A stretch of DNA of 64,000 nucleotides, taken from positions 64,001-128,000 of the IMG/VR virus record IMGVR_UViG_3300012662_000008. One strand, given 5' to 3'. Positions 3 to 64,000 of the stretch are shown here, piece by piece. The stretch's first letter is position 1. Each line of letters opens with the position of its first letter. Source of the DNA: a virus (lineage: Duplodnaviria; Caudoviricetes). Under the pieces are notes generated by a model, which had not been told where the DNA came from, did no database searches, and saw only the letters and a list, made by a program, of their open reading frames with translations. Made by a program: the position numbers and the translations under genes.

Positions 3-1121
3 AGTAAGCCCAGCCTTTTTATAAGCATCGGCATTTCCTTTAAAAGCATCCGGAGTCCAGTATTCTTTTGTAGTGCTACCTGTGCCAGAACTACTTCCAG
101 ATTCTGTACCTGTTGCATCTGGCTCATATCCAAACAATTTAAGAATTCGTTTGTCATTATCCTTTACTTCCTCTCCAGCAGCAAGTCTATTTTCAAGATC
201 AATTAGATAATTATTAAAACCCTCGGTTCCATTAAAATTATCTTTTAATGCACGGATGTAGTCAAAATTTCATTTATCGACATCATTATAATTGTCTTTA
301 TTAAAATCATCAGCCCATATCGCACCAACAGCATCACGCATTGTATCGTACATTTGTTGGTTGGACTGCGCTCCTTTATTATATATCGATTTTCCATCTT
401 TGTCTTTATCATAGCTAAACCACCCGCTTCCACGTAAGAGTGATTTCTTTACTGGGCCGAGTTCTTTTTCAGGAGCATCTGGCGTAATTTCACCAGATAT
501 AAGAGTATTATAACTATCAAGATCTGCGTCTTTTTGTGTAGAAAAAGTAGCTGCCCAATTTCTGGCGAAACGACTTTTTGGAAGTGTTTTTGGAGTTATA
601 ATTGAATGCGTGATATCGTTCCCATCTTTATCAAAAAACCAAACTTTATTTCCTGCAACACGAATTCCGCCGCCATTATTTATTGCATTTAATGCATCAG
701 TTTGTGCTCTTTTATTAGAAGAGTTCCTAAACCTTTTATTTATTTCCTGTATTGCTCTAGCGCCGGTAACACGAACTCCATTTAACTCAAAAAAGCCATT
801 GTTTACCAATGCCGATTCAGCAGGATCTGCTGGAGCTGCACTTGTAGTAGATGCAGGCTTAGTAGCAGGAGTGGTTGTTACAACGGACTTAGCGCTAGAT
901 GTTCCTGTAGTTGTTGTACTAGGTGCGGCTCCTGTTTTTGTGTCAGTTGTACTAGACTGGGCCGGAGTAACTTGAGTTTTGTTTTCTTCACTAGCGGCAG
1001 CCTTCTTTTTTGCCTCTTCTTCCAGTCGCTTCTTTTTTTGTTCCTCTGTTTCATTTTTAGGCAGAGGGCCTGGAGCATTCTGGTATTTCTTTATTTGACT
1101 TCTATATATTACTTGTGACAT
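3..1121 (-). CDS. Large virion-associated/ejection-like protein, runs off the left edge (TGA=Trp at 270)
   Basis: ORF 270..1121 ends in TGA and the same frame stays open to the window edge. Low-complexity T/A/P/S linker. Confidence 0.55.
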
Positions 1122-1137
1122 ATATTATCATTTATTA

Positions 1138-1172
1138 AAAAAGGAGGAGCAGTTTTTATTCCACCCCTCCTT
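1138..1172 (-). terminator. Intrinsic terminator
   Basis: AAGGAGGGG...CTCCTCC hairpin followed by a T run on the minus strand. Confidence 0.55.
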
Positions 1173-1189
1173 ATAAAAGAAATCTTTAT

Positions 1190-1504
1190 TTACTTTCTAA
1201 TCTTAGCTCCACCGCAGGCCTTCTTATAGATCTTGCCTCCCTTGCGCTGGAAACCTACTTCTTGTGGTTGTGCACCAACTTCCTGTGCTGCTCCCTGGAG
1301 CATTTCCATAATAATCTGAGCGAGCATTGCTGCTGCATCTGGACCCATCTCCTGGATAATTTGTTGTGCTACTTGTGAGAGTTGTTGCATCATCTGTTCA
1401 TCACTTTGTGCTTGCTGCACCTCTTGTGCTGGAGCTCCCTGTGCCTCTGCTGGTACAGGCCCACCCTGTTGCATGTACTTTACATCAAATTTCTTAATTT
1501 TCAT
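1190..1504 (-). CDS. Small Q/A-rich crAss-like protein with QQGG/RKGG motifs
   Basis: Intact ORF. Motif pattern shared with other putative virion cargo proteins in the window. Confidence 0.7.
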   Translation of the reverse strand: MKIKKFDVKYMQQGGPVPAEAQGAPAQEVQQAQSDEQMMQQLSQVAQQIIQEMGPDAAAMLAQIIMEMLQGAAQEVGAQPQEVGFQRKGGKIYKKACGGAKIRK

Positions 1505-2438
1505 TTTCTATAAGTGTTTTTATATTTTTAAAAAAACTTGCCTCATCATATTCGTCGTATTTTATAATATATAAAGTACAATTATGTTCTGCAAGTAAAT
1601 CTTTCTTCTTATTATCCAATAACTTTCTTTTTTCAAATTCTATTTCTCCGCCAAAAAATTCAACTGGTTCATAATGTTGTCTTCCGTTATATTCAATTGC
1701 AAGATTCAATCTTGGATTAAAGATATCCACTCTTTGAAAGCCCAACCAAGTCGTTGTATATTCCCAAATCCACGGTTCATTTGGAAATTGTTCTTTTAGT
1801 TTTTCAAAAATTTTTTGTTGCATTTTTCAGTTTTTACAAAATGGACAACCACCTCCGCATATATGATTATGTGGTTTTTGCGAAAAGTCACCGTGGGTCT
1901 TGCATGTTATTATAACTGGTGTTTCCTTATCAGTATACTCTACTTTATCGTAGCTATAAAGGTTTCCATGTATCTCCCTCGCCTTTATTATAAATTCCTC
2001 TGTTGTAAAAGGCTTTGATTTCCCACAACAAATTGGACATCCATGACCACGAAGATGGTTCGTAAGCCGTTGTCTATATTTATAGTTATGTTTTTTACAC
2101 ACAATCATTATACAATCTTGCATATGTTCAGTTCCATCTATTTTATAGATGTACTTATCATTATGGATTTTAGCAAATTGATTTAACAATTTTTCTTTTC
2201 GGGCTTCCGCGTTTGGGTTTCAGATTCTCTTTGGAAGAACTTTATTTTCTAAAGCACATTTTGGACAGTTTTGTCCTTGTAAATGAGCGCCGGCTCGTTG
2301 AATAAAATCTCCATGTGTTTTGCATGTTATTATTACTTTATTTCTTTGCCCAGAGTAAATAGTCTTACTATAGTCGTATCTGTCCTTGTGAATTTCTCTA
2401 CATTTTTCTATAAATTTTTCTTGTGTTAATTTTCTCAT
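1494..2438 (-). CDS. Free-standing endonuclease: repeated Cys/His (DUF723-like) units plus C-terminal PD-(D/E)XK/Vsr-like nuclease, 314 aa, 2 TGA
   Basis: Three in-frame ORF pieces joined at TGA 2220 and 1827. Repeats 'IITCKTHGDF..HL.G..CP.C' and 'LAIEYNGRQHY'. Confidence 0.8.
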
Positions 2439-2458
2439 AGATCATATTACTTTTGTGG

Positions 2459-3968: not shown

Positions 3969-4574
3969 TTAATTTTTAGCTTTTACATACTCGGCTTTTC
4001 TATGATTTTGGGCATCTATCTCTTTAAAAACATATCTACCCAACGCCTTGTAATCTACATCACTCTTACTTTGAAATGCTTTTTCTGCCTTTCCAATAAT
4101 TATGCGGCTTGACTTTCTTGACATAATTCTTTCCCCACCTTCTAATATAGCCTGTGGTTGCCCATCCGAACCAATAACATACATTGTGTTCGGTTCTAAT
4201 TCTATGTCAGATTCTTCTTCCGCGTAATCATCATCGCTATCTATTTCAAGTACATCACCGGGTTCCACATCACTACCAGCATTTAACTCGACGACATACT
4301 TCACATTATCTTCAGAAATGAAATCCTCGTTATTTGGTTCGCCCTTTTTAACAGAGATAACTTCTTTATCTTCTCCGAAAAATATAATATCTAGTTCGAG
4401 GTCACAATCTTTCATTCAGAAATCAACGTGTTGTGGTTCGTCATAAAAGAAAATGCATCCCTCATCATTATCCATCTCCTCTACATTTTGTAAGCCTTGT
4501 GCTCGCTCCTCTTCAGTACGGGCAGCGAGCACTTTGTACGGCTTCTTTTCTATTTTTATATTAATCGTCTCCAT
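3969..4574 (-). CDS. DUF192 (UPF0127) family protein, 201 aa
   Basis: ARTEEERAQGL..EGCIF..VDF-W(TGA 4416)-MKDCDLELDIIF..YVVELNAG matches the family motifs. Confidence 0.85.
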
Positions 4575-5974: not shown

Positions 5975-8900
5975 TTATGCGTAACTTTGTGTATATATTG
6001 TTTTCAATGCCGTTATCACAGCAAGATCTTTTCCAGAGTATTTAACGCGTATTCTAACGTATTTATCTCGTATTCTGGTTTCTTTATTTCGGCTTCCGTC
6101 TTTGTATTTAATCGGATCTATTTGCACATTTCAAGAGTCCTCTATATATTGAGTATTTCCAAGTCTCCTACCGACTTTACGAACGTCTTTACAATCTTGC
6201 TCAACTTTGATTGCCTTCTTATTTTGGTAATCTAGACTGGCAATTATCTCTGCATTATCTAGATCTCGGTCTTTTAACGGAGTACCAACTAAGCCGTAAA
6301 CATCACCATCAATTATATATTCAATTTCCTCTGGAGCAACATTATTGGAAATAATCACGAGATTGTTAAAAATCTTATGCATTCCAACCTGATCATTACA
6401 AACATATTCAAACTCAAACGGATATTGTCTATCGTACCAATAACATGGCTTTATTTCAAGCCCCTCTACATCATCGAATATTCCGGCCTGACCATGCACG
6501 AAAAAGCCATTTGTTAAAACATTGTTAATTTGTTTCTGAAATTTATCTTTGCTATTGATAATCATCCCAACAATTGTATCGTACGGTTTTTCATTTTCGC
6601 CATATAAGCACCAATAAGTGATGTGTATATCATACTGCACTGGCATCTTTGTCTCGGAAAACGCATTTATAAACGCACTAAGCCCACTAGAAGTTATTCT
6701 TCAGTTTGTTTTCTTTCCAGAATCCGTATCCTCATCAGAACCAACTTGGAAAAGTTCAGCAATTTTTTCTTTGCCTGTTATTTCATCGTAAACAAGCTTT
6801 TCGTCATTTTCATCATATAAACAATAAACAACTTTATTTATTTTTATATCAGAAATCCCGTCAATAGCCATCCCTTCTGGAGCTACAAGTTTTGTTTCAA
6901 AATTAATAACATTTTTATTATCAAGGTCCCAAACTGCGTTTGTGCTATTAAGATCATAAGATGCGTTTTTACTGTCATATATTTGTGCTAACGAGGTGAC
7001 TCTTTCTCGATCCATTGAATAAAATATATTATCAATATTTTCAGAACACAATGGTATTCAATCATATTGTGTAATTCATTTACTTAATCTCTCATTATAA
7101 CAAACATTTCATTTTTCGTCCTCACGTTCATTATAAAAAGTAAACATAACATCTCCTTTAAAATTGTTATAATGTGTTTTAACATTTCTAAGGCCAATTT
7201 TAACAGTTTTGTCTAATTCACTAAGTTTTATATGTTCGTTCAAAAACTTCTGTATTTTCATATCAGAAATGGTCTCAAAACCATTTTGTTGTGTGATGCG
7301 CCATATCTTCTTCGCAGTAGTATCAACACCATACACACCAATTGGTGTACGAATAATCGAATCTTGTCAGATGCTTCCAAAATCAGGATTGATAACAGTG
7401 ACCTGATTTTGCAGTACACCTGCTCCGTACATATGCACAGATTGCCCAGTTTGTGTAGAAAGCAATGCCTTTTCATTTACAGGTAAAATTCCTACACCAT
7501 GCTCGAATATGCACAAAAGATTGCTATTCCATGGAAGTAATTTTACAATTGCGCCGTATTGTCTTTCAATATCCTGATAATCAAGTGATTGGAAGATTCT
7601 ATATGCATTCTGGAAATTACCGTAAGTTTGTGCATTACTAAACATCACCCTATTATCAAACATATCCTTTATATAAGGAAGGTTTGGTGCAGAGAAATTT
7701 TGTCTTTGTCCAACCGTTGCATTGTACCCCTGATTTAATAACGCAGAATCAGCAACCTTTGAAGGAGCAGACGTCGAAATATCATTAACCGGGTAAAAGT
7801 ATCTAGGATTTCCCATCAATGCATATTCGTCTGTTTGTGTTCTATCAATTGATCTAAGACCAAGATTGTAATTGGACATGCATTTAAAAGTGACCCATTG
7901 TCCAAGTGCTACTGTATTTAAGTCTGCCCTATTTATTTTACTATAATCACCCTGTCCATCCTTTAACTCTTCTGCCCCCATTTTCATATTTCCCATGCCT
8001 TTGTAGTTATCTTTTCATGTATTGCGATCAACGATGGTATTATTAATAGGAACTTCAGGGTCAATAAAATTACGATTCATTCGTATTGTTACGGTGTTTG
8101 TATAACAATCTCCTCTATATGCGTCTACTTCACTATGTGTAGTTGTATCGCCTATTTCGTAACGATCGGTAATTGCATAAAAAGGAGCTGTGTCAAGACC
8201 ACGCACAGTAAAATAATCAGCGAGGAATTGCTCATTATAATCACGCTGCATTATATTGTACATTTCTCCGTAAGGGAGTCTTGTGGTAGCACCTATAAAA
8301 GGAGCGTATAATCCACGAACTAAATTAACATTATCGGCAGAGTACTCACTTTTATTTCTAAATAATCCAAATTGGCTAACATCCTCTGCATTTCCAACCT
8401 GGGTAGCAAAAGTATATCCGTTAACAATTTTGGACGAACAATTATTATCAACATATATCATATTGACCTTACCATAGTTTGTAAGGTTTGAGGATTGCCC
8501 ATTTTGTATATAATAATGCCTACTTTTATCTAGAGATTGTGTTAGTCCCATTCCTTCAGTAGTTTTAAAAATCCCAAACTCAGAACCATCAAACATTGAT
8601 CTTAACTCAGGTATTAATGTTGCATCAAGTGCGAGTAACCCAGATCCAAAAGAAACTGTAGTTTCTCTTACGTGGTTTGCGTAATCATTAGCTAATTCCC
8701 TACTTCCGTTCAAAAAACTCTCTGCAGAAAACGTAGTAGCACCATTCTCTTTTTTAGTTGCCAACATTGGTATTGAACAACCTTCATCAATTCCAACCGA
8801 GTAACCCTGGCAGAGTGTTAACGGAATTCGTTTCTGTCTAACAAAAAAATATCCTCGAACCCCTCTTTTTTCAAGCTCTTGTTTTACTCAAGGATGTATA

Positions 8901-10234
8901 TCAAAATTGTAATATATTGGTTTGACAGAACTACTTGCGTAATCAATAACAGACAGATCTGGATTTTTAAAAACTCCGTAAGTGTTATCTAGCCAATCAG
9001 GACTGTTAAGCATAGTGTTTTTATTGAGCTTTATAAGAGAACCATCTGTTTCATCAAACATATAAGTAGTATCATAATCAATATTCGATCTTCCTCCAGC
9101 CTTTTCTTCTTTATCAGAGAAATTACAACCTCGTAAGTTAAAAACGGGGCTAAGTGACCCGTCCTGCATAATATAAACAACTCCTAGCCTATATAACTCG
9201 TTTGGCCAATATCCTAGCTTGTAATATAGGTTAAGTGGGTTGTAGTATTCACACAACGTTGGTTTGTTTGTATCACTCGCCTTGTAATTACTAGGATTTA
9301 CTCATCCAATTCCTTCCTCGTCTTGCTTTACAGAAACTCTAATATAATAAGAAATTGCTTGTAGATCGTCAATTGGTAATGTATTTTGTTCAATATTTCC
9401 AAAAAAGATCATATTCTGTATTTGGACTTCTGTTTTTGCACAAGTTATCAGGTTGTATTGTATATTAAGTTCGTCAACAGAAATGTCCAAAAGATCCTCG
9501 AAGCCATTTAATGTAAAATATTCAGTTTCAGAACCTATGCTATATGCACTTTTTACTTGGTATGCTTTTGTGGTGCGAACCCCATTCATATCACTAGTTT
9601 CCCTAGTAAAATATAAAAACAATTGTGAAAAAGAACGATCTAGATTTGTTGCCTTTAATTTAATTGTTTTATCGGTGGTTTCGTCTAACAACGTTCCTGA
9701 AATAGACGGTATATTTTCGTAACTACCTTTGTATATATAAACTTGCCCGGATTCTGCTAGAAAGTCAGTTTTATTGCCATCAGCATCGGCTAATCGTATA
9801 TAAAAGGTATATGTACCACCTTTAAGATTTCCCCCGGAAATAACGTTATTTAACGTTATAACCGGGATTTTATCTGTACTTTTTATAAGCCTAGTTTGTA
9901 GGTCTATCTTTTTTTCATCGTATAAGTTACTCTGTTGTGTTTGGTTTCTGTTAATTACTCGAAATTTGTTGTTTTCTATTTTAGAAAAACGAGAGTTGAT
10001 AATTCTAGGTGGATTTTTATCATCCGTTAAAATTAAGTTAACTGTACCATCATAAGAAGGTTGGCACTCAATTGAAACAGGATGTTCCAGATCTATTTTA
10101 AGACTAGAATTATCTATATTAAACCCAGTTATTTTACCATCAGAAACCAAATTTCGCAATGCGGAGTATGTATGTTGCAAGTCACCACTTTGGGCGAATC
10201 TTTGCAAGTGTAGTGTGTATGTTGTTGATGACAT
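5975..10234 (-). CDS. Large tail (muzzle/stabilisation-type) protein, ~1419 aa, many TGA
   Basis: Seven ORF-track pieces share one frame and each ends in TGA. C-terminus ETRIRDKYVRIRVKYSG. Position in the tail module. Confidence 0.75.
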
Positions 10235-10236: not shown

Positions 10237-13200
10237 TTAATTCGTTAATATAAATGATGTGCTAGGAGACGCACCAAACCCAATTGAATAAGTAGCTTCG
10301 CCGTGTCCACCATTAGATCAATAACCATGAGTAAGTTTATCATTAACAAAACTATATGAATTATTATTTAGTGCATCTACAACTTTGTTGTACGTTGAAT
10401 TAATTTCATCACCTCCAACTCATACATACCAAAGATTTGTATCTGACGTTAGGTTATTAATGTACGTTAGGCAGTCATCTACTGCAGCCAAACTCTTTTG
10501 GGTGGACGATTCATTAGTATATTCATCTATCTCACTTTTTAGTTTATCTAATTCAATAGATAAGGTGTTCTGATCAAATTCTGATTCCTGTATATGTAAA
10601 ACCACGTTATCATTAACCTCTTTTATAGTTTTGTTTTTTGTTAGATTGTTAAAATTTGTGTTAGAATTAAAACTTAAACTAGAGAATTGATTAAACATTG
10701 GTTCTGGATCTATAGTGATTTTTGTATTAATCTGAACATTACTCAAACTGAAAGATCTTGAGCTATTATGTTGTGTAATTGTAACAAAGCCGCCATTTAG
10801 TGATTGCGATGTTTTTTCAAAACAATAAATATTTTTTCGTAATTTATTAACTAAGCTTGAAAAATCAGCCCAACTAGAAGAGTTGTTCCTAAAAAAATAT
10901 AAACAGTGATTTAATGTATGTCTATTTCTTATCATCAGACAATATGATCCAGCATGATATCATTCGTCGCGTTTATCTCCACCTATGCTTACAAAATCTG
11001 ATCCTGAAGGGTCAGAAAAACAATGTATTCACGTTCGATTTTGATTATCATTGTTTCATTTAATAGCTTGTATTTGTAGTTCTACCGGTCACAATACTTC
11101 GTCTTCTTGAAATCTCTTATATAAATAAACATATGGATCATAACCATACGGCCTTTCATCGTTTCCTTCACGATGTACTGTTACCGTCTCAATATATGTC
11201 CTTATATTTAGAGTGTGCAATTTAGTTGGAGATGTTTCACTCGGTGCTGTATCAAATGCAATTATAGATTTGTCATATGGATATATTCCGTCAGTTGGCT
11301 CACCAATTGGTGTGTATTTATAATCGAACATATCTTTTCCAAAACTAACTCAATTCAAACTAACAGTTTCAGACAACATCCCGCTTGTTGTTACAGATAT
11401 ATTTTTTTTAACATCTTCTAGTTTTCCTGTATATTTGTTAAATTGTTTATTATTTGGTTCTAACCCTATTTCTATATTTGCATTTACGTCTAAAAATCTT
11501 CACATTGGTCCATGCGGAATAATTATATTAGATAAAATTCCATCGGACTTTATTGTGTAATATTGTTCAGTATATATTTTTTGGTTATTATTATAATTAA
11601 TGATTTGATTAAATTGATCCTTTGTTATAAACTTGTCATATATAGCAACTTGCATATTGTGTTTAAGTTCTCTAAATCATAGAGGCGCTTGTGTATTTAT
11701 TGTTTTTTCAATAACATATGTTGGGGAATTAAGATTTTCTTCACCTATAACATATTTCTCATAATTAGCAAACCACCTATCAAAAGTAATTTCATAGTAC
11801 TTAGCATCGTTAAATCCATTCATTAATTTAGAGGCAATAACAAGCCTTTTCATATTGTCATTCTGGAAATATTTATTATCCAAAATAATCCTGAACTGCA
11901 ATAAGTATATGTCCTCTGGAACAATCTGTTTGTAATTATGTCCGCTACCGTCTATGTTTTTATTGCCAGAGTCATCAGAACCATCAAAAGATTTGTCATA
12001 TTTCACAAGATTGATCGTAAGAGATGTCGTAATATCTTCCGCGGTCTCCCATGTATCAACTTGGTGATAATCAGGAGTTGTTTGTTCAATATTGTTTCTA
12101 ATTGGAGTCCAATTTAATGTACTGTTAGTTTCTCCTGTAAGACGAGATAATCCCCATTCAAGTCTAGCACCGACCGTATTTGCCATTCCTGTTGTGTTGA
12201 ACATTACCTTAAGTTCAGATTCATCTTCACTAAGAGCGTAGGTAAAATAATTGTTTCCTATTTCAACGTTGTTTTCATCAAAAGATGTTGCATCTGCCGT
12301 GTATGTATATTCCTTTTTAAACTTGTCATATGCAACATTTCCTATATAAGGAGTTGCTGTTACTGTGATCCTGCAACCCTTCATAACAGTGAATGTATAT
12401 GATTTTCCCTCAGTGTTAAAATAATATTGACCATTTGGCATATTAACTGGAGTATTTTCAAACAAATCTTCACCAGATATTGTCCGCTCCCCTATAATAA
12501 TATTGCCATTGTTATCAGTTTCAAAGATTAAGTTTCCATTTTCGTCTTTTAATTCATTACCTTCCTTATCCTTTTTAACTACGTAAGTTTGGTCGAGCGT
12601 GACCTCATATATAACTTTTGCTTGTATATTTTTTGTTGTCTCTTTTCCCTCACTATCCACTTCTTTTATCTCAACCGGACCTTTATATAGCCCATCCGAC
12701 ATCAATGTACGAAACTTTAAGTTTATATTAAGTTCTGCTGGAATGTTATCGCCTTTAAAATTTGGAGAGTTTCCAGTAGTAAAATTAATTAAGAAATTAT
12801 CTATATCCGGAAAACATAATTTAACAGCGAGTCACCCAGGTATTTTTCAACGAACCTCGTCATTCTTACTCATAGCCGAACTTTTATATGCAAGATGTTC
12901 TTGTATATATTCGTCAATATTCGTAAGATTTCTATTTTCGTCCATAATATAAAATTCAGTCTTTTGAAAAGGTTCTTGTTTTATTCCTGTAATAACAGTT
13001 TCCTTTATTACATTGCCGTCTTCATCGAGCTGTTTTTTCCCATTTTCATCTAAGACCTCTCTCTCTTCTTTCACCTCATTTCCCTCCCACTCAATTTTAA
13101 CCTGGTCTCCTGGGTTTATTTTCCAACGTTCTGGGTCTTTATCTGTAAAAACTTGTATGTGATATTTATCTAAAAGATCTGTATATGTTTGTGTTTGTGT

Positions 13201-13545
13201 TCAATCAATATAATTAATTGTCTCACTAAGAGTAGTTCCATCATCCAATCTTGCATTGACTTTTGTAGATGGGTAAGATCCAATCTCAGTTCGATCTGTT
13301 GCTGGGTTGTAAGAAACGATGTATAATATTCCTCCATATTCCTTTAATCCAACAGGCACATAACCAGGGCTGAGTTTGCAATTTTTCAATCCAAAATTTC
13401 CCATATCATTTTGGAGGCATAACTCATTTCCGTTATATGTTAAAATTGTTCCATTTTTACAATCCGTAAGTGCTGTAGCTGGCACATTTATCGGATTGAT
13501 ATCTTTTACCATTCCATCTGAAAAACTATTTGAAGCCTGTCCCAT
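10237..13545 (-). CDS. Large tail stabilisation-like protein, ~1102 aa, many TGA
   Basis: Five in-frame pieces ending in TGA. N-terminus 'NSFSDGMVKD..P...TYNGNE..LQNDMGN' typical of crAss-like tail proteins. Confidence 0.72.
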
Positions 13546-14549: not shown

Positions 14550-15519
14550 TATACTGACTAGTTTTAATTCAACCAATAGGATGCCCATTAAATTTCCCAG
14601 CTGTTTTTCTTTTTCCAGATAACACTTCAGAAATATTATGACCGTGTGTATTAAAACGTCTCCCGGCTTCTGACAATGTGTCAAACTTCCCTAAAATTTC
14701 ATCTGTTACACTATCTACAGCAGTAACCTTTATTTTTGGATCACTTTTAATTTTGTGCGCCCGCTTCAAGTCGTTTTGCGTTATAGTATCACCTTTATAT
14801 TTAAAAATATATCTGGTATCATTTATTAAAACAAAAGATGATTGCGATCTACAATTCGCAGTTATTCTTTTAGGTGCAATTTTAAAAACACTTGAAATTT
14901 CTTTTGCAGAATTAAAAGTTCTCAATAGTACTCCAGACATATTAAACATTAAAATTTTCTTATCATAATTAATTCTTTTTAAGTTCTTAAAATCCTCCTC
15001 GGTTATTGTGTCATTTTCATATCTAAAAATCACCCTATTATCATCTATTTTTGTATAAAATTTATTTCTTGAACAACAGGACTGGATACTCCCCTTAGTT
15101 ACACCGAGTATCTCGGCAGCACTTTTTGAAGACTCAAACGTTTTTAATAGCTTCCCGGTCTCATCAAACATTAAAATTCGAAGATAGTTAACACAACATC
15201 CATCACCACCCTTTGTAAGATTGTATCCGTTTACAAAAGTGTCATATTTTTTAATATAGTATTTTTCTCATCGATTTAGTAATTTTCTTAATTCTTCATC
15301 ACTAGGAGCATTTACTATTTTTACTATTTTCCACAAAAAGTTTTCTAGCCCATATTTTCGTAATGCCCTATAAAATTTGCTGTTGTAATCACTATTGTTT
15401 TTATTTTTATATTTTCTTTTATGTTCTTTTCATCTTAAATTAACGTCACTACGCCCGGTTTGTCCTATATAGCTTTTATTATTAAAAACATTTGTAATTT
15501 TATAAATATATCCAATCAT
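14524..15519 (-). CDS. Free-standing GIY-YIG homing endonuclease with NUMOD1-like repeats, 331 aa
   Basis: MIGYIYKITN..KSYIGQTG..R-W(TGA)-KEH. Repeated 'G.LL.TF.S...' units. Confidence 0.85.
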
Positions 15520-16214
15520 TATAAAACACTTTTATATGATTTGCCGTAACTCTTTCTGTCTCAACGAGTTTTAACATCTAAAATGGCATTCATATCGTTT
15601 TGATTCAAGTGGTCTTTTACTCGTGCTGCGTTACAGGCCCTGTACCACTCTGCCTCTATATATTGTGCAATTGTAAAAGCATTTCTGTCTTTTCTTCGAA
15701 TTGCATCTTTGTAAGTCTCTCTCCAAGCAACAAATGCTGCAATTGCACGTAATTCTTTCTCATTAACAAGTGGCAGACCATCATCTTCATCTGCCAAAAT
15801 TCCGTGATATAACACAGTTATATCATCATAATCTCTGGAGAAATATAACACTCCATCTCCTTCTTTATATTTAACGTAACTACCGCTAGTATAAAAAGGA
15901 TCATTATTTTGTTTGAAGGCCTCTATATAACCTTCTACGCGCACATTTTCAAGATCTATTATATCTGTTTTATTACTCGTTATTTGTGCGCTCAGAGCCG
16001 GTATTGTTACCGACTCAATTATTTCTACGTTACAAGGAAGAACTAGTTCCTTATCTTTCGTATTTGCTTTATATCTATATAATCTAGTATGTTTGTTTCC
16101 AATTTTTTCCCACCCTACCAATGCGACATCTTCAAACGTATCTGGATCTGGGTCTACCCCGAATAACGAGTTACAGAGCTGATATGCCGCTTTTATATTA
16201 ACTAATTTCCCCAT
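15519..16214 (-). CDS. Putative tail ring/head-tail protein, 231 aa
   Basis: Readthrough of TGA 15561 (KTR-W-DRKSYGKS). Gene order after the MCP. Confidence 0.65.
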
Positions 16215-40782: not shown

Positions 40783-40794
40783 ATTGTTTTATAT

Positions 40795-40896: not shown

Positions 40897-40900
40897 AATA

Positions 40901-41659: not shown

Positions 41660-41829
41660 TATGTAAGATCTATTATTTCAATTCCACCCTTGGCTATCTG
41701 TACGCCACCTTTGTCTGTACCAAGCCAAACGCCCTCTATTCCATCTGTGTCAAAAAATAATTGCCCTGCAGTAAGTTTTTTAACTTTTGTTTCTGTGTAG
41801 GGACCTTTTAAAAATTGTACTGTTTCCAT
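41659..41829 (-). CDS. Small fibre-anchor-like protein, 56 aa
   Basis: 'VQFLKG..AGQLFFDTD' resembles the N-terminus of 43863..45416. Confidence 0.55.
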   Translation of the reverse strand: METVQFLKGPYTETKVKKLTAGQLFFDTDGIEGVWLGTDKGGVQIAKGGIEIIDLT

Positions 41830-41891
41830 ATTTTAATATTTTAAGAAATTGGAACTCTACGTTCCGATCAAGGAGCGTAGAGTTAATTGTT

Positions 41892-43850: not shown

Positions 43851-43862
43851 TTCCTCCTATAA

Positions 43863-49702: not shown

Positions 49703-49970
49703 TTTTACACCCGTTATAAACGAGATCTATTTTATAAAAACCAACCCTTGTTAATTGCCTGGTTTTTAACTCTTTAATTATATATTTTTTGAACTGTTCA
49801 AAATCACCCTGGTAGGAAAGTATAAGTGGTACTAACTCGCGATCCAGATAAAGAAACAGACTTCACATATCCGGCTCGTCGAACCTAACTTCAATCTTGC
49901 CTATATATTGGGCTTCAGTCACCTCTTGGACTAGTTCAACTATTTGCTGCTGGTATTGTTCTATATCCAT
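49686..49970 (-). CDS. Small protein between TerL and portal, 94 aa, 1 TGA (absent from the ORF track)
   Basis: MDIEQYQQ..YIGKIEV..M-W-SLFLYL. Confidence 0.65.
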
Positions 49971-52900
49971 AATTTTCAGGTATTACTCCGTGTTTCTTCC
50001 GTCCATATTCATCAGTATATCAACCAATATCTTTCCACTGCTTTTTAACAGTATCGACCTTTCCAACAGTAAGACCAGACATATCTTCATCGCCAAGCTC
50101 GCACATGCCTAAACTTGCGATAATATCGAATTTTCTTTTATTTTCATAAGTATAATTCAACATCTGGTCCAACATTTCATCAAAATCAATTGTATGCCAG
50201 TAGTCATTTATAAAAGCAGCAATAAGTTCCAATTCATGTCGTATAACTGCTTCAGTACCAGGCACTCCAATAAGTTTCTTTGTATTTGGCGATCTTGTGG
50301 TCTTCTTGGTAATTGCAAAATCTGGACGAGCCATAAAAAGATGTTCTTTGTGTTTTTCCCGAAAATAAGTCTGTATCGAGATTTTGGTGTACTCCAACAT
50401 CGCTTTGCAATCATATCAAGTAAGCAACTTCATTGTAAGATCGTATGCTTCACGTATATCTTGTGGTCGATATTTGTACATTGCTACATATTTCGGTTCA
50501 TTAAGTCCAAAAACACGCTTCTTTATAACAACACAGAAATCAGAAACATCACTATCTTGTGCAGAGTCAGATCTACCCATATCAATTGCATCTATTCCAG
50601 CAACATATAAGTTTTTATAAGGTTTGTTTGTTTCTGGATCAATAAGTGGTGGTTCTACAACAAGCAAGTGTGAACTACGACTTTCAACTGCTTTAACTTT
50701 GCTCATCGAAACTGCTCCTCCAGCCGTATCTCAGAGTAATTGCATTTTCTTCGGTTTTATCCCTGCCCCGTGTATTTTAAGTTGCACAATTCTTTCAGTA
50801 ATTGCAGCAGCATCAAAAACGTTGTCACCATGCTTGGACAACGCTTCACGTGGTATAAAACAGTGTTCTGCGCACTCGTTAAGATAGTCTTTGTCAGAAA
50901 GATTTTCTCGCTGCTTTTCATAAAATGCCTTTAATTTTGGTCAGTTTGTAACTCCTCGATTATCAAGATATTTCGACACAAGACCGAATTTATGTGCAGG
51001 TATAAAAAATGCAGTCAGATCTGGTCGCCCATCATCAGAGTCGTAGTTTTTATAAGGTAGTATGTTATATCCGTTTGGGTTAAGGAACATTGTTCGTAGG
51101 CCCTCAAGTTTGACATCATCTCCCAATTTTGTTATCGTAGTGGTTTTTTATCCTCTACTTCTAAAACTTTTGCTTCGTTTTAGTTCAGCGTACATTTTCA
51201 CCCGTTCTGGGGTCGAGCACTCTTGGAGACATTATATTTATTCAGTCTCTACGCGTTACGGTGCTAAATAACCTTTCGTAATTTATTTAGTTACCTCGGT
51301 ATTTGCATTCCAGCCTCTACCGATTTTGCTCGATTTCAAAACAGAAGATCCCTCTTCTGCCAGGCAGAACATTTTATAAATGTCATATTTTCTGTCAAGA
51401 TAAATTGTAGAGTTAGAGTATAAAAGTCTACTTACAGCCCTTGCCTTCCTGCTGTTATAATACAGTGTAGATGCTTTTGATAAATATGCATTACAACTAT
51501 TATTTCTAATATGTCCAGTAATTCCTAAAAATTGTTCAACGCCTTTTAAAAATTCTTCGGTTCCACAAAAACTTAACTGAAATTTTCTTCCATGTTTTCC
51601 AAAGTAGATTCCCAATGAACCATCACCGTCGCAATATCCTCTAATAAAATCATAAATTAAATTTCGATGTTTAAAGATATTCTCCGGAGGAAATTTTAAA
51701 ATCAAGGATTTTGCGGGAACGCAACCCTTATCATATAAAGCTTGTCACATATGTTTATTTCTAACGGAAAACCTGCATATTATAGAACCGTGGTTATCGC
51801 ACAATCTTGTTTTTGCTTCCGATTTTAAAAATTTCTTAAATTTATTCATATGATCTAAATCTCCAACAGAAAGATTCATTTCAATTTTATCTTCGTTTTT
51901 AGCAATATTACCATCTGCATACATAAAACCTAACCAATACGCTTTCTCCTCTGTGTCTATAACATCAAACATTGTTTGGTCTATTTTAACTATATTTGTA
52001 TAATTTATAACAGGAAGCCCTTTTGCTTTTATGTATTTTGCAAGAGTTTGTCTTTTAATTCCATACTTTTTATATAACTTTGTCAAACTCCTTTCCTTTT
52101 CAGGAGTCTGAAAGTATTCTTCTATAATTTTATCTATCAATTCAATATAACGTTCTCTATCCATGATATTACTAGTTATAAAATGTTAATATATTTACCT
52201 GTACCAACCGCAAACCTAGTTCCAAACTTTTGTCCACCCAATGAAACAAGAGCATCACCTTTAATTCAGGAGTCTGTTAAGGCGGGGTTAGATCCACCCT
52301 CATCGTAGATCAAACGGTCAGTTCTAGATCCTCTCACCTTGTCTGACGTATCTGCCACAATGCTGTTTATCTGGGACATTCACCCATATTCGACATTGTC
52401 CTTTGTCTTTTTGGATGCCCTTTTTGTGTCATTATTGTTTATAACAAGTCTAGCATGCCGCAACCCACCAGTAGTATTCATATTCAGCCAATCAAGCTGT
52501 CTTCAGCACTTTTCTCGTAATGGTTGCAATTTTGCTTCAGCTGCACAAGTTATGATAACGTTGTAGTTTGGTAGTACTGTATATGGCCTAACTGCTAGAT
52601 TTGCCAAAATTTCCGATAGCCCTCAATTTGTTATCCTACCGGCTTTTTATCCGGTAGCTCTTCAGATTTCTCTGAAGTTCAGCGCACATTTTCATCCTTT
52701 TTAGGATGCTCCGCACTCGTGGAAGGATTATTACTCTCTTTAACGTTCACCTTCTGCGCGTTACGGTACTCAGCGATTAACTGAGTTACCTCGGTATTAA
52801 CATAATGATTAAATTTATCATACTTTCTTTTCATAAAGAAGTTTGCGTTTTTATATAGATAATTAAAAATTTTTGGCAATTGTGAAGTTGCAGCACTAAG

Positions 52901-54291
52901 CGTAAACATATTGTCACGATTGGTATGACAAATATTGCATTTTACATTGTTTTTCTCAAGCTCGTTTTTAATATCTTCTAGCATGCTTTTTGTTTTAGAG
53001 ACAATTGAAAAATTTGCACGAAACCTCTCGTTCTTTTTATATTTCAGGTCTGGTTTTATATAATAACCGCTAACACAACCATCTCCGTCGAAATATCCAC
53101 GTATAAAATGTGGAATCAGATCTTTTGGTATGTTTGGTATATGATTTTCTGCTCATGTTTTTCTGTAACCGAGCCCAAGAGCAACTAAATCTTGGCAGAG
53201 TGTTGTACTGTTTATATCTACACCGTACGTTGTTGCACACTCATAAATTTCTCCATGTCTGCCAATTTTTTGTTTTCCGCGTTCAATAACAAACGTTCTT
53301 GCAGTTGGACAAATGATATCCTTAAAATAGTTAACAATATATGCATCGTCGTAGCTAAGATGTATCCTAAACGTTTTTCGTTTTTCATTTATATTTCCAT
53401 CGGACGCATATAATCCAAGAAGATATGCTTGCATCTCTGTTTCGATCTTTGAAAAAAATGTATGGCGCATATATCTCTTACTTCGTATATGCTTTTCCAT
53501 AGGATAATTATCCTCTATAAACTTAATTTGTTCTTCTTTATTCATAATAATCGTGATTCAATCACATTTCATTTTAGTTTCTACCGATTTTGCGAAGTTT
53601 ATTACCTATATATTACTATATAGGAGCACATATTATTTATGCCACGGGCTTTTAATATACAAACATCTTTATGTAGTTTTTCGCACATATCTACGTAATG
53701 AAAAAACTCATATTGCTTTGCCAGGAAAGATGGAAATGCCTCTTTTCGACCTGCTCCAGAAACTGCATTTTCAACAACAGTTTCCATTCTATAAAAGTTC
53801 AAAAAGAAATAATGATCTCCAGTAATCCTATATCGTCCAACAGTGTAACCGTTCTTACATCGATCGATTTGTTCCATCCAAAATTCCCTTCATTTTTTTG
53901 ATCCTTCTGGAAACTCGGTAAAAGCCCCGTCACGATCATATATAGCAGCCGTTTCTCTAAAAGGAGTCGGGTCAAAATCGAGACCTTTCTGCATTGTAAT
54001 CGGTCTGTAGCCAGTTAATTCATAAGAAAGTTCTGGATCGAAATATTGTATTTCTTCGTCAATTGGAACATCTCACTCTTCCCCAGGACGAGCTTTGTGA
54101 ATATTTGTTTTTGCATTCATCATTTCTTCGATTTCTGCGTCACTCTGTGCCTGTTGCTCATTTTGCTCTTTAAAAAGTTGCTCAATTAATGCAGCCTCAG
54201 ATTTCATGCTAAAATCGGGGAGTCTTTTCTTTTGATCAACAATCCGCTCTTTCTCTGGCGGTAGTTCTATATTTGGTGTTTTTCTAGCCAT
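49885..54291 (-). CDS. terL: Terminase large subunit, 3 exons (54291-53639, 52623-52197, 51123-49885), ~772 aa, 12 TGA
   Basis: Spliced Walker A LKARGI|GLSE, Walker B RLIYDEGG, GTG|GD, RNase H-like YVAGIDAID..SDF. Confidence 0.9.
51124..52196 (-). mobile_element. Group I intron 2 of TerL (1073 nt)
   Basis: U|..G| ends. P7 GCGUA/UACGC, AUCGGUA/UACCGAG. IGS GCCUG near 51360. Confidence 0.85.
51283..52164 (-). CDS. Intron-encoded double LAGLIDADG endonuclease, 293 aa, 1 TGA
   Basis: AYWLGFMYADG and FIRGYCDGDG. Confidence 0.88.
52624..53638 (-). mobile_element. Group I intron 1 of TerL (1015 nt)
   Basis: P1 GGCAU/GUGCU, P7 GCGCA/UGCGC. Confidence 0.85.
52631..53545 (-). CDS. Intron-encoded double LAGLIDADG endonuclease, ~304 aa, 2 TGA
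   Basis: AYLLGLYASDG and FIRGYFDGDG. Confidence 0.85.
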
Positions 54292-56367: not shown

Positions 56368-56582
56368 TATCAAAATCCTGCTACACAATGACTATCTACG
56401 TGAGGTGTTTTTTTCTCCAAAAAACATCCGCAACCTTTAACATATCCTTCCTTTGGCAAAAAGGAGGTCTTACCTTCTTTATTTATATATTTACTAGAAT
56501 TGCAAACTGGGCCAAACTGGCTCATTTTGTACAACCCACATTTTTCACATATTGCCAACCGTTTTTCAGAAAGTGTACTCAT
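56367..56582 (-). CDS. Cys-rich Zn-binding small protein, ending W(TGA)-TAA
   Basis: RLAICEKC..GCGC.L.KK...HC.AG.W. Confidence 0.7.
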
Positions 56583-57532
56583 TATATTATAAAAGGTTTA
56601 TCGCGGTCTAATTCCGCTTGGATTTTCTTTTGTTTCTTGTAGTGAGCAATCATATGCTCAACGTCCTCTTTAAGATATTGGCACGGATATTCAACCTCTG
56701 TGCCGTCGTCCTTCAACTGTACAATCATAAGACCTTTTACAACTAAGTCGGGCCTTTGCTGCTGTATCATTCATGCATACAGGCTCGTTTGCAATTGATA
56801 ATGGTTAAAATTGCAATCATCTAGGTTGTTTAACGGAAATTGCATTTTAACACTTTTCCCTGTTTTTTTGTTAAAATAGCTTTTTTTATCAATTGTTTTA
56901 GATGTTTTTCAATCAATAATATATAAGTCTGTCCCATGTACAACAACTAGATCAGATATTCCTGCAAGCATCAACTCCCCGTCATCAGATTGCCATTGTA
57001 TAAGAAATTCTGGATAAACTCCATTCTGGAGATCAAGTTTGTAGTAATTTTCTCTACACTCAAATTCTCCTTTTAAGTCTTTATAACCGTACTTTCCAAA
57101 ATCAAACTGATTTTTGTTATAAAAAGACAATTCTTTCTTCTCGTGTGCAAGAGTTCCCTTTATGCAGGCATCGTTCCTTTTTCTCTCGTACTCGGCGAGT
57201 ATTTCAGATTTCTTTTGTTCAAAATCAGCTAAGTTAACGCCTAATTTACTAAGTAAACGCAGGTCGAACCGTTTTGTAGTAAGAAGAGTTGTTTTAATTG
57301 GCAACCAAACTTCCATTGGAAGCAGTGCCTCCAATGCTTTATAAGACGATCAAAAATTTTCATCGAATGGCTGTCCGTACGAATTTACAATGGTTGTGCA
57401 AGAAACGTACGTTTTCATTGTTTCTTTATTGTAGTACTTATGCTGTTCGTCATTAAAAAAACAAACGTCGTTTTCTTTATCTATTTTTATATCTTTAAAA
57501 AACCTTTCTTTTTCATTGTGTCCTGCTGGCAT
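56582..57532 (-). CDS. PD-(D/E)XK exonuclease-like protein, 316 aa, 3 TGA
   Basis: 'GT..H', 'AGISDL', IID-W-KT, 'HYQLQ.SLYA'. Confidence 0.85.
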
Positions 57533-58425: not shown

Positions 58426-58662
58426 ATGGACATATTTAGACTACTTAACTTAGTTGGGGCATACACCCCAATTCCTGCTTTTAGAGATGGCGGTCTTATA
58501 AAAGCAAAATCTGGTATTCATATAAAACCAGAAAATGAGGGGAAATTAACAAACCTAAAAAAGAGAACAGGAAAAACAGAGGCTGAACTCTGAAAAGATG
58601 GCGATGCATCCGTTAGAAAGATGATCACATTCGCTAGAAATGCAAGAAAGTGAAAACATTAA
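58426..58662 (+). CDS. Small basic crAss-type protein, 78 aa, 2 TGA
   Basis: SGIHIKPENEGK...FARNARK-W-KH. Confidence 0.75.
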
Positions 58663-59048
58663 TGAAAGTTATTTATAACAAAATTTTGCCGGTGCCTGGA
58701 TTTTATGCTATCACGATCCTAAAATGGATTTTTATTAGAGAAGAGTACAGAAAGTACGATGGCACAGAGACTTACAAAAGAATGCTTAGACACGAGGGGG
58801 TCCATTATGCACAGATAATGGATTTTACTCCAGATTGTTTTCCAGAATGGCTTAGGCTTTTAATTGGGGGAATTTGTTTTTATCTCCTTTACTTGCTTGA
58901 GTGGCTTTGGAAACTTATCCCTTGCGCAATTAAAAAGCATGATGCTTACAGAATGATTTCTTTTGAACAGGAAGCATACGAGCACGAAAATGAACTAGAT
59001 TATAAAAGAAAGAGATTTGATTGAATTAAAAATATTTTTAAAATATAA
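58662..59048 (+). CDS. Membrane-associated HExxH zincin-like protein
   Basis: RHEGVH..Q, 'AYRMISFEQEAY'. Confidence 0.75.
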
Positions 59049-60356: not shown

Positions 60357-60382
60357 AAACCCAGGCCTAATGGTCTGGGTTT
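60357..60382. terminator. Bidirectional terminator between convergent genes
   Basis: AAACCCAGGCC..GGTCTGGGTTT. Confidence 0.65.
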
Positions 60383-61791
60383 ATTTGTTTATTAAGTTCA
60401 TTTTGTATATATAAAAAAGTAGGATCTGCTACCAGTGCCTTTTTAGGCAACGGGTCCTCAAAAGAAAGGGCTACTCCCTCTTTTGCTTTATTATAGTTCT
60501 CGTTATTTTTATGTTTATTTATATCTTTTCTCTCCAAAATAAAATTAACGTAATCTCTCGTTTCCTTCGGGAGGTGTTCAAGTCAGTCCAGACTTTGATA
60601 TATATCTTTTCCTGCCCGTTTTGCTTTATTAAGAGCATTTATTGTATTTCTTCTTCCATAATTATATGCGGCTAATGTTTTAGCCCACAAAACTCTGTCA
60701 GATGGATTTCCTTTTGTAAAAACATCAGAAGCTATATCGCGACCAATTCTCCAGTCTCGTACTTTTTGATTGTCTTCTGGGTTATCTAGGTCTATTTTTA
60801 TTTTTGGATTTGCCTGTAAGTAATCCGCTAGTGCAGCCGGCATAATTTGAAAAAGCCCCTTTGCTCCTTTTGGACTTTTGCCAGTAGAAGAAAAATTGTT
60901 TTCCATAAAAGCCTGCCTCATTCCTATTTCATTGGCATCTATGTGTTCTCCACGAGTATCTGCCGGCAACAATTTCCCCCATTGAAATTTCGGCAACTTT
61001 GTTCCTTTCTTAGCAAAAATACTCTCCTCAGCAGCACGTACCCTTCTATCTAGATTTCCAGATCCCGATTTTCCGTACATCTCCTTGTGTTTTTTCGCAT
61101 ATTTTGCTTCTATTTTTGAAACACGGGCATATAAGTCATCTAGGCTAGATATATTTCTCTCGTTTGCCCCTGTGTATTGCGCATAAGTATATGCTGTCGC
61201 ATCTTTTGCTGTTTGGGCTTTTCTAAGGTTGTTTAGATAATCACTGTATTTGTTTTGTATCTCGTCTATTGCAAAATCTAGCTGCGTTTTCAGATCGGCA
61301 ACTCCACCATGCTCTGCTACGTAACGAGCAAAATCATCATGCCTGGATCCTGTTCATTGCCCAATTCCAATTCCGTATTGATTTGATTTTACAGAACTGT
61401 TCTTTCCTGCCTTCTCCTCTTTGTTTTCTGCATTTATATTAAACCCAGATTCTGCCTGCCAAACCCCTACTAAACCTGCTGCCTGTTCCTTTGTAAGACC
61501 TAATTTCTGCTGAAGATATTTACTAGCAGCGTGCCGCATGCCTAGATTAGTAGTATTGGAAAAGTCTATTTCAGCCCCCTGGGGTTTCTCTTGGGAAACC
61601 GTTTCTACTTGGGGTGTGTTTTCCTGTGTTTCTGTAGGCGTTTCTACCTGAGTGTCTTCCGGGGTTTCTGCAGATTGTGTTGTTTCTTGTGTTTTTGGTC
61701 GGAATCTTGGTTGATATCCTATTATTGGCTCCTCTGGTTCCTGTGTTGAACTTGAAAAGTCTTTATTTACTGTTGCTTGGTATTGTATCAT
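60367..61791 (-). CDS. Dual muralytic protein: phage tail lysozyme (lysozyme2-like) plus SLT lytic transglycosylase, 474 aa
   Basis: QAAG.VG.WQAESG..GIGQ-W-T. 'GAKGLFQIMP', 'LAAYN.G', 'LP.ETRDYV'. Confidence 0.8.
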
Positions 61792-62213
61792 TACTTCTTT
61801 ATTTCGAATTTCATTTTTCTCTGTTTTCCATCATTATTGAACAATCCAAAATGCAATCACTTGCTCTTTCCAGATTGCTCAATAATGCACTGATCCCAGC
61901 TTTTACTAGCGTCCAGATAAGAAAGGACAAACTTACAAAAAGCATCAAACTGACCATTTATTGGTCAGAGATCAACTGCATTTCCTGTTGTGTGTGCCGA
62001 AGTCGGAACGCCGCCTACAGCCTTGTTAAGAGCAGGGCATCTATATCCAGAGTTAATTCTAATTCCGGATCCCCATTTCTCTCTAAGAGAGTTCAGAAAA
62101 TCTATAAGTCTTTTAAGGTTCTCTTCTACTTGCTTTGTAGGAGTATTATCTATGTGCTTTGCTACTGCTGTATCGGAGTAGCAGAGTTCTTGTACTGTGA
62201 AATATTGTTTCAT
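61791..62213 (-). CDS. Endolysin, peptidase M15 family, 140 aa, 3 TGA
   Basis: INSGYRCPALNKAVGG..TSAH..G.AVD, W-DQ.I.E, W-LH. Confidence 0.9.
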
Positions 62214-62425
62214 GGTAACTCTATATATTTATTTTCAACTAAAAAATCCAGAGTTTTTTTTACATCTGAGTAATCTAAGTTTCTAAATTTTGAAATAGTT
62301 TCAACAATGTCTTCTCCATCAAAAACAACTGCAGGAGATACTCCGACAAAATAACTTCAAACAGGATACGCCCAATCTGGTATGGCCTTATCGTGGTTAA
62401 CAGTTCAAGTTTTAAAATTATTCAC
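62162..62425 (-). CDS. Small partner protein, copy 2 (start GTG 62425 or ATG 62440)
   Basis: Paralog of 63490..63720. Confidence 0.6.
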
Positions 62426-63488
62426 CCCCAGCTCCACCATAGTTATTAACAATTACAGTTGTTCCAAAAAGAGTTCCCGTTAGACCGGACCACAGTCTTT
62501 TATAATCATCTTCTGTTTGAAGATTGAAATATTTTTTTAGTTTGCTAAGTCTTTCGTTTTTTGTTATGAGTTTTTCTAGCCCATCTTTACCTATATATTT
62601 AGAGCCGGGTTTTAATCCTAATTCTTTGCCAGATTGGGAGAGCCACGCTGCGGTCTCAGTTGGGTTTTTTAGATATTTTAGCTCCTCGTGCAGTTGGGCA
62701 GGTACTTCGCTGTATGATTTTCAGATTTTATTCGCAATATCTACATTCACGGGATTTGATCCAAGATCTCCATATCCAAGGGTGTGAAGTCGTTCATGAA
62801 AAGCAGTTGACTCCACTTTTTCTATTGGTAAGTTCTTATTTATATCAATCTTATTTGAATATCCAGCACGTATTGTTTGTGGGGTAAAAATAAACTTCTC
62901 TGTACCGTCTTGTAGAACTCTTGCATAAGCCCCTCTCCCATTTGAAACAACTCCCAGATCAACAAGCTCTATTTTTGGAGACGTATTTGCGCGAGTAATA
63001 TACTCGCTAGCCTGAGTTGCAGGTCATTGTATCTGCGTTTGCCCAAGCGCTTGTTGTCTCGCGAATCAATCTGTATTTCTTTGTATAGATGCCTGTACTG
63101 CTGGGTCTTTAACAAAAGCATTGGCATCGCGCACACCTTTATTTGCGGCGGCCTTCATTTCATTTTCGAGAGCCTTTGTTGTAAACTTTGTTTTCCCAAC
63201 CGGTGTTGCACTATACAATAAGTCCTCTGTATTTCCGGATATAGCCGTTTCTATAAGTGCTTTATAAGCACCAGGAGCCATAACTTTTGCAAGCCAGCCT
63301 CCGGGCTGCGTCCACATAAGAGCAACATCCATTGCAGGATGCTCTTGTTTTAGTGGCTTTTCTTTTGGAAGAGAATGTTGCCTTTCTTCTAGTTCTCTAT
63401 CTTTGTCTATCTTTTCATATAACGCTTGTTCAAGATTTTCCCGATCTCTTTTGCGTTTTCAGTCTATTCAAAATTTTGGTATTGGCAT
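62418..63488 (-). CDS. Zincin (HERLH) domain protein, 356 aa, multiple TGA
   Basis: AFHERLH..YLKNPTE. Paralog of the partial gene at the right edge. Confidence 0.7.
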
Positions 63489-63489
63489 A

Positions 63490-63720
63490 TTAGTAAAACT
63501 CAATTATGCTATTGCTTACTAGATATTCGATCGACTCTTTAACAATTCCAATTGGTTCATTTATTTTCTTTGAAATTATTTCTGCTTTATCCTCTTCTTC
63601 ATAAAATACTGCTGGGCGAATCCCTTCAAAATATTGAAGGGTTTTTTTATAAAAATCTGGAACAGGCTTCTTGTGAATTTTTCAAAAAATTAATTTTTTA
63701 GTACAATCCATTGGGAGCAT
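63490..63720 (-). CDS. Small partner protein, copy 1, 76 aa
   Basis: W..H.K.PD...YF.G..PAV...ED..E.ISK..VK...LV.N..IE. Confidence 0.65.
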
Positions 63721-64000
63721 AATTTTCAGAATTTAGAGTTGATACCACTATGCCAGTATACAATGTTCCAGTCAGGCCTTTTCATAATTTCTTATAATTT
63801 TCCTCTGAGTCTAATTTTAAGAAATTAAGCAGGTAATTAAGTCTGGTTTGATTTTTATTTTTTTCTATGAATTTTTTAACCCCGTCTACTCCGGGATATG
63901 GTGTGCCAGATCTTAATCCTAGTTCGTATCCGGTTTGTGCGAGTCACGCAGCTGTTTCGTGAGGCTCTTTTAAATATCTCATATAATCCACAGCAGCTTG
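63698..64000 (-). CDS. C-terminus of a paralog of the zincin protein (partial)
   Basis: YLKEPHETAA-W-LAQTGYELGL..YKKL-W-KGLTGTL. Confidence 0.7.

Follow-up and report, generated by a model that had tools for sequence, protein, structure and literature searches.

The stretch analysed here (the window) comprises the 64,000 nucleotides at bases 64001-128000 of the virus record IMGVR_UViG_3300012662_000008, which is 166,528 bases long with a CheckV completeness of 95%, and the subject of this analysis is the reading of its many in-frame TGA codons. The window has a GC content of 37% and a strong plus-strand skew, with T exceeding A and C exceeding G, which fits genes lying on the minus strand. 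It very probably represents the middle of a minus-strand block of virion, packaging and lysis genes (genome positions 33-131 kb) in a Zeta-like crAss-like phage that decodes UGA as tryptophan (Trp) in this block.

Judged from the matches of its TerL, portal, muzzle and ring proteins, the phage belongs to Crassvirales, as had been stated in an earlier annotation made from the letters alone (the sequence-only reading). All 66 matches of TerL in a tblastn search of a phage collection were crAss-like or unclassified gut phages, so that the matches point to Crassvirales only, and the closest TerL of a GenBank phage is 43% identical. The first and last TerL exons match phrog_6681 and the portal exons phrog_6547, while the muzzle (PF25731 crAss_MUZ, 102 bits) and ring (PF24228 CrAss_Ring_1, 30 bits) families both exceed the cut-off of 27. 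PF23898 (Crass_capsid) gave a weak match of 20.6 bits, under its cut-off, on one exon of the major capsid protein (MCP), and a PHROGs search of seven further proteins of the virion block gave no match. The size of 166.5 kb, the three Rfam group I introns in the window and the LAGLIDADG insertions fit a resemblance to the Zeta group. Comparisons were made with MT835470, the closest GenBank phage, which uses the standard code (94% coverage by open reading frames (ORFs) under code 11), with 13 IMG/VR relatives of 53-72% TerL identity, and with the whole genomes G001-G003. One of these, G001 (IMGVR_UViG_3300013426_000016; 203,856 bases), repeats itself at an offset of 157,187 bases (25016 and 182203), probably because a genome some 157 kb long was assembled past its ends.

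The main genes that carry in-frame TGA codons or their TGG counterparts are the following.

3969-4574, minus strand: DUF192 gene with TGA 4416-4418 in an FWMK motif (Pfam, 74 bits)
5975-10234, minus strand: crassvirus muzzle protein of 1419 amino acids (aa), nine TGA (PF25731)
10237-13545, minus strand: virion-block gene of 1102 aa, fragmented under code 11, with 12 TGA, the densest in the window
15519-16214, minus strand: tail ring protein 1 (PF24228), one TGA, which faces TGG in G001 and MT835470
25513-27777, minus strand: gene of 754 aa, nine TGA and two TGG; three IMG/VR relatives carry TGG at site 191
37382-39544, minus strand: fibre-cluster gene of 720 aa, with an N-terminus (TGG 39500-39502) paralogous to 45442-46362
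45442-46362, minus strand: gene of 306 aa with TGA 46237-46239, a site that is TGA or TGG in relatives
47278-48363, minus strand: portal 3' exon, two TGA (phrog_6547); in MT835470 and G003 it follows the 5' exon without a break
48575-49702, minus strand: portal 5' exon, TGA at codons 233 and 318 (phrog_6547)
49885-51126, minus strand: TerL last exon, seven TGA (phrog_6681); sites 132, 237 and 369 are TGA or TGG in relatives
52176-52607, minus strand: TerL middle exon, three TGA, colinear with the other exons in a single ORF of MT835470 and G001
53602-54291, minus strand: TerL first exon, two TGA (phrog_6681, profile positions 49-187)
56582-57532, minus strand: PD-(D/E)XK nuclease (Pfam PDDEXK_1, phrog_298), three TGA including 56909-56911; these face W, Y, TGG or TGA
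60367-61791, minus strand: tail lysozyme/SLT gene, two TGA (Pfam Phage_lysozyme2, 83 bits; SLT)
62418-63503, minus strand: paralogue B, five TGA, carrying TGG 62490-62492 and 62643-62645
63698-64000 and on to 64771, minus strand: paralogue A, carrying TGA 63782-63784 and 63944-63946

Coverage of the minus strand by stop-to-stop ORFs of at least 150 aa rose from 53% under code 11 to 81% with TGA as a sense codon (code 4), whereas the controls with TAG or TAA as sense reached 57% and 62%, respectively. The code-4 ORFs abut one another and tile the minus strand end to end, while code 11 breaks the same genes up. The 57 minus-strand genes of the window contain 109 in-frame TGA and 117 TGG codons, an excess of TGA in frame that goes beyond chance. 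The sequence-only reading had called the recoding window-wide; at least one TGA is present in 36 of the 57 genes, but since the other 21 have none, this wording is slightly too strong. The possibility that these codons are true stops, due to pseudogenes, assembly errors or low-level readthrough without reassignment, draws on the code-11 reading itself and nothing else. The 109 in-frame TGA stand against no TAA or TAG in essential genes such as TerL, portal and muzzle, homology runs on past the TGA codons, relatives at 30-45% divergence share TGA at these sites, and the same stretch was recovered in contigs from two independent studies, which leaves this explanation with almost no probability.

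All eight codon coordinates on which the sequence-only reading was based are correct on the minus strand, and the flanking peptides are as it quoted them. It had aligned TGG with TGA in three pairs of paralogous segments, and the genes concerned are indeed paralogous. In GKSFRW, TGG 39500-39502 lies opposite TGA 46237-46239 (genes 37382-39544 and 45442-46362, E 8e-21), and the paralogues 62418-63503 and 63698-64771 (E 6e-46, 40% identity) hold both the ETAAWL pair (TGG 62643-62645 opposite TGA 63944-63946) and the LW.GLTGTL pair (TGG 62490-62492 opposite TGA 63782-63784). Two of the family motifs said to be restored by Trp were also found: the Pfam DUF192 match covers the TGA of FWMK, at which MT835470 has W, and the TGA of IDWKT lies at 56909-56911. 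The third, an M15 motif (WDQ/WLH), was not located, and no M15 family match was found among the window proteins scanned.

Homologues carry Trp, TGG or TGA at many of the TGA positions, in agreement with the proposed meaning of the codon. Among 63 TGA sites aligned with MT835470, the facing residue was W in 17, F in 10 and Y in 10, against a background of 1.1% W, and TGG sites had a similar profile, with W at 41 of 88. A BLOSUM62-based likelihood for the minus-strand block placed W first, with a lead of 18.5 nats against MT835470 alone (n = 55) and of 68.5 nats when three relatives were used, followed by Y and F, with Gly and Cys far behind. Within the window, 57 TGA sites fall in alignments to relatives. 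The 13 IMG/VR relatives showed TGA (97), TGG (46) and TAT (22) at the TGA sites of the phage, and TGA (38) and TGG (35) at its TGG sites; this interchange at both kinds of site indicates that TGA and TGG are synonyms across the clade. Two whole relatives gave the same picture, with TAA or TAG in none of the 237 aligned pairs of the block. Individual genes are in line with this: muzzle sites 740, 956, 1042 and 1059 align to W in MT835470, portal codons 233 and 318 are TGG or TGA in the 13 relatives and W in MT835470, all three sites of the TerL middle exon are TGA or TGG in 11-12 relatives, and at site 73 of the TerL first exon 11 relatives have TGA and MT835470 has W. Three further TGA lie in the TerL tail past the end of homology, where the tails of relatives vary in length, so that the first of them may or may not terminate. 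Moreover, by a measure that needs no homologue, TGG alone makes up 0.60% of codons in the 33-131 kb block and TGA plus TGG 1.17%, level with the TGG content of the TGA-poor plus-strand blocks (1.15-1.39%). Together, these data show TGA to be a sense codon for Trp in the 33-131 kb block.

The sequence-only reading had expected a tRNA-Trp(UCA), an RF2 antagonist, or both, to be encoded outside the window. No tRNA was found inside the 64-kb window, and ARAGORN detected one with the anticodon UCA in the whole genome, at 154945-155018 on the plus strand, 26.9 kb beyond the window end (Rfam tRNA score 53.8 bits). It is one of five tRNAs (Gln, Leu, Met, Lys and UCA), all on the plus strand at 138.5-155.0 kb in a TGA-poor block. 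In bacteria, Trp identity as recognized by the tryptophanyl-tRNA synthetase (TrpRS) of E. coli relies on G73 and A1-U72, with C35 and A36 kept. The phage tRNA keeps these elements: A1 pairs with U72, position 73 is G, and the anticodon loop includes A36-A37-A38. Among 46 distinct tRNAs of one bacterial metagenome-assembled genome (MAG), A1-U72 together with G73 occurred only in both tRNA-Trp and one tRNA-Gln. G001, G002 and G003 each encode a tRNA(UCA) with G73, and the suppressor tRNAs of relatives are closest to tRNA-Trp (identity 0.69). No sign of an RF2 antagonist was seen: a domain search of the genome detected no RF-1, PCRF or class Ib synthetase (TrpRS) domain, though a protein of unfamiliar type may fill the antagonist's role, and the tRNA is thus the sole visible component of the recoding. 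A blastn search with it against phage and E. coli collections and five relatives returned no match, the sequence being too short and too diverged for this.

A reading of TGA as another residue, namely Gly (as in code 25), Cys, selenocysteine (Sec) or Arg, could appeal to the ARAGORN label, which names the tRNA 'SeC' from its anticodon, and to the tRNAscan call 'Trp or Arg' for a related phage (PMC12386605). Against it, the likelihood order is W, Y, F with all other residues more than 60 nats worse than W, TGA and TGG swap freely among relatives, and the tRNA has normal dimensions (acceptor stem of 7 bp, variable loop of 4 nt), unlike tRNA-Sec. Its G73 also differs from the U73 of the Gly and Cys tRNAs in the 46-tRNA set. 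Such a reading is very improbable, and Trp is retained as the meaning of TGA.

The tRNA(UCA) has an inverted elbow, with C19:G56 in place of the normally invariant G19:C56. G56 is unique to it among 81 tRNAs compared, whereas the four other phage tRNAs and the suppressors of relatives are canonical; the inversion might tune ribosome handling or shield the tRNA from host factors that attack tRNAs. Directly upstream (genome 153893-154917) lie two genes, one of 94 aa and one of 246 aa that is metallophosphoesterase-like (GDVHGR ... GNHD). Homologues are found 1.3 kb from tRNA(UCA) in G003 and about 4 kb from it in G001.

The use of TGA is a mosaic along the genome. In the minus-strand block at 33-131 kb, TGA accounts for 48% of Trp codons, and a second recoded stretch, which starts at 161.4 kb, continues across the record ends to 5.9 kb and includes a DNA polymerase with three TGA. 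Trp in the blocks at 131-161 kb and 6-33 kb is written almost solely as TGG; the former, a plus-strand block, has three homologue-supported TGA sites versus about 105 TGG. In gene 142888-143307 of this block, a TGA (genome 143284-143286) stands exactly at the TAG stop of the G001 orthologue (74% identity), with a TAA six codons on. Given this coincidence, TGA 143284-143286 is a probable terminator with TAA as backup, and TGA may still terminate in the 131-161 kb block. A few further TGA codons lie 2-18 codons ahead of TAA or TAG. Within the window, a comparable candidate is found in one plus-strand gene.

58650-59048, plus strand: HExxH 'protease' gene (phrog_15610)

Its sole TGA (59022-59024) is codon 125, the MT835470 alignment ends at codon 124, and this TGA may act as a terminator.

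The recoded block itself contains TGA-free genes, among them three that are fibre-like.

33785-37084, minus strand: TGA-free tail-fibre cassette gene of 1099 aa, eight TGG, GC 0.44, almost no orthologue in relatives
41892-43850 and 43863-45416, minus strand: two fibre-like genes (652 and 517 aa), neither with a TGA, GC 0.42, no orthologues in relatives

The lack of TGA among the eight Trp codons of 33785-37084 has a binomial P of 0.005. The GC content of the three genes (0.42-0.44) exceeds that of their neighbours (about 0.35), and their raised GC, scarcity of orthologues and lack of TGA suggest a recent import from a standard-code source. Atlas neighbours of the 652- and 517-aa proteins include Phage_tail_C, Mtd_N and fibre-repeat families; a search for a reverse transcriptase found none, so that the fibre gene resembling Mtd_N does not belong to a diversity-generating retroelement (DGR) here. 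A PDB sequence search with the three proteins returned nothing. The surrounding cassette (33251-45416) is strain-specific, with a GC of 0.40-0.44 and hardly any orthologues in three relatives, and two of its genes interleaved with the TGA-free ones, 39544-40782 and 40901-41728, have four to five TGA each.

TerL, the portal gene and the MCP gene are interrupted by introns or insertions.

48358-48574, minus strand: ORF-less group I intron splitting the portal gene (Rfam RF00028, 74.6 bits)
51283-52164, minus strand: LAGLIDADG homing-endonuclease ORF in a TerL insertion, one TGA (phrog_4645)
52631-53572, minus strand: second LAGLIDADG ORF in TerL, three TGA (phrog_4645)
23499-23978, 22925-23254 and 21544-22080, minus strand: TGA-free MCP exons, 446 aa in total, colinear in one frame of MT835470

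In the portal 5' ORF, the TGA counted as codon 389 falls within the intron and is no true codon. Contigs of runs X1 and X2 connect 48306 to 48539 with six other letters in between, which indicates that intron-less portal alleles exist, as DNA, in other strains. TerL consists of three exons over 49885-54291, parted by two insertions, each about 1 kb long and with one of the LAGLIDADG ORFs; an Rfam search of the two insertions found no intron core. TerL is uninterrupted in MT835470 and G001, in G003 one of the two sites is occupied by an insertion, and a variant strain in run X1 has DNA without 51112-52210. The MCP gene region (21544-24300), with at least three exons, contains two of the Rfam group I introns, at 23252-23510 and 23987-24209, and an insertion at 22185-22793 with a LAGLIDADG ORF (phrog_11023) that has two TGA. 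A short first MCP exon would sit upstream of 24209. A plus-strand ORF at 23217-24077, in which five 'TGA' face Ser, Cys and Ala, was considered as a counter-example and rejected as an antisense artefact that overlies both group I introns and one MCP exon. The virion block also has two free-standing homing-endonuclease genes, at 1494-2540 (HNH type) and 20232-21317 (phrog_314 type), both with in-frame TGA.

Several observations weigh against decoding of UGA as Trp under a simple early/late scheme. Non-aromatic residues stand opposite about 30% of the aligned TGA sites, a share to be expected where positions are variable. The gene at 153893-154177, just upstream of tRNA(UCA), has a TGA that faces TGG in two relatives, and since this homologue-supported TGA lies in a TGA-poor block, a strict early/late code switch is too simple. 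The best global identities of tRNA(UCA) are 0.64, to Ile and Thr tRNAs, a value that is uninformative and does not group it with tRNA-Trp. The suppressor tRNAs of relatives have G1-C72, so that the Trp assignment of the tRNA depends on few identity elements together with the codon evidence.

Two TerL homologues that contain in-frame TGA lie in a Faecalibacillus MAG, and this MAG has an RF2 gene (prfB, 462 bits). This co-binning, the only lead to a host, hints at one among the Bacillota. The sequence-only reading had placed the host in the Bacteroidota, an assumption from which the present lead, slender as it is, points away. Bacillota are also the predicted hosts of opal-recoded Zeta phages (PMC12386605), with which the Faecalibacillus lead agrees, rather than with Bacteroidota. 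A GroEL-like chaperonin of the phage (genome 158758-160335; phrog_5725, E 1.5e-140), which is TGA-free, has its best match in a prokaryote genome collection, at 53% identity, on a contig of a Faecalibacillus MAG that also holds related phage contigs.

Were the host itself to use code 4, with UGA as Trp and no RF2, the phage would share the code of its host and there would be neither conflict nor switch. Nothing direct speaks for this, beyond the finding of no release-factor gene in the phage. The phage retains its own tRNA(UCA), its blocks at 131-161 kb and 6-33 kb avoid TGA for Trp, a gene there seems to stop at TGA where the orthologue has TAG, the MAG that provides the sole host lead encodes prfB, and code 11 is the one used by the hosts published for crAss-like phages (PMC7886860, PMC12386605). 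A code-4 host is accordingly very improbable, if somewhat less so than the other alternatives to Trp suppression in a standard-code host.

Under suppression in a standard-code host, tRNA(UCA) would be transcribed early from the TGA-poor block and charged by the host tryptophanyl-tRNA synthetase. Made before the TGA-bearing genes are translated, it would outcompete host RF2, and full-length replication and virion proteins would form only after the suppressor has built up. As the tRNA must accumulate and beat RF2, full-length products of TGA-bearing genes would appear late. Such a temporal code switch has been modelled by Yutin 2021 (PMC7886860) and by Borges 2021/22 (bioRxiv 10.1101/2021.08.26.457843).

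It is conceivable, though rather unlikely, that TGA density would act as a dosage throttle beyond an on/off timer and that the inverted elbow pair would tune or shield the tRNA. The MCP, the most abundant virion protein, and the presumably imported fibre genes have no TGA, whereas the low-copy muzzle, portal, TerL and 1102-aa proteins have 5-12 each. Such a contrast of TGA-free abundant and TGA-rich low-copy proteins would be expected if suppression were incomplete because host RF2 still competes.

Annotation under the standard code shreds two thirds of the virion genes, and the code must therefore be known before any further reading of the window. The recoding of TGA to Trp with suppressor tRNAs is already published for the Zeta group (Yutin 2021; Lera 2025). 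The phage described here adds a further well-documented example of a suppressor tRNA supplied by the phage itself and of a stop codon used as sense in genes needed late. It adds mosaic detail, in the form of TGA-free capsid and fibre genes and a likely TGA terminator in a TGA-poor block, and no new principle.

Mycoplasma and Spiroplasma use code 4, with a tRNA-Trp(UCA), loss of RF2 and genome-wide reassignment. Like them, the phage uses a tRNA with the anticodon UCA to decode UGA as Trp; however, its tRNA presumably works beside the host RF2, and its TGA use is mosaic. The crAss-like phages with code 15 (TAG to Gln) of PMC9523058 belong to the same order and likewise reassign a stop codon in late genes, but the codon and the amino acid are different, and the metaproteomic proof given there covers code 15 and not TGA as Trp. 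Jade, Sapphire and Agate, code-4 gut phages outside Crassvirales described in bioRxiv 10.1101/2021.08.26.457843, are other phage lineages that share a tRNA(UCA), a standard-code host and enrichment of the recoding in late and lytic genes; for them, too, the recoding has been proposed to time translation.

The closest resemblance is to the Zeta group, characterized by genomes of 145-192 kb, dense introns, suppressor tRNAs and TGA as Trp or TAG as Gln mostly in late genes (PMC7886860), with phage Lera as a described opal-recoded example (PMC12386605). The likeness is drawn from size, introns and recoding, and the nearest GenBank TerL is 43% identical. The phage differs from the group in having five tRNAs, compared with 17-26 in most listed Zeta genomes, and in having neither a second (CUA) suppressor nor a DGR reverse transcriptase. 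Nevertheless, its size falls within the Zeta range, it uses TGA as Trp chiefly in structural, TerL and some replication genes and encodes a tRNA(UCA). Its MCP, TerL and portal genes are split by group I introns or LAGLIDADG ORFs, its intron ORFs contain TGA, and its MCP exons are without recoded stops, as reported for a Zeta MCP by Yutin et al. (PMC7886860).

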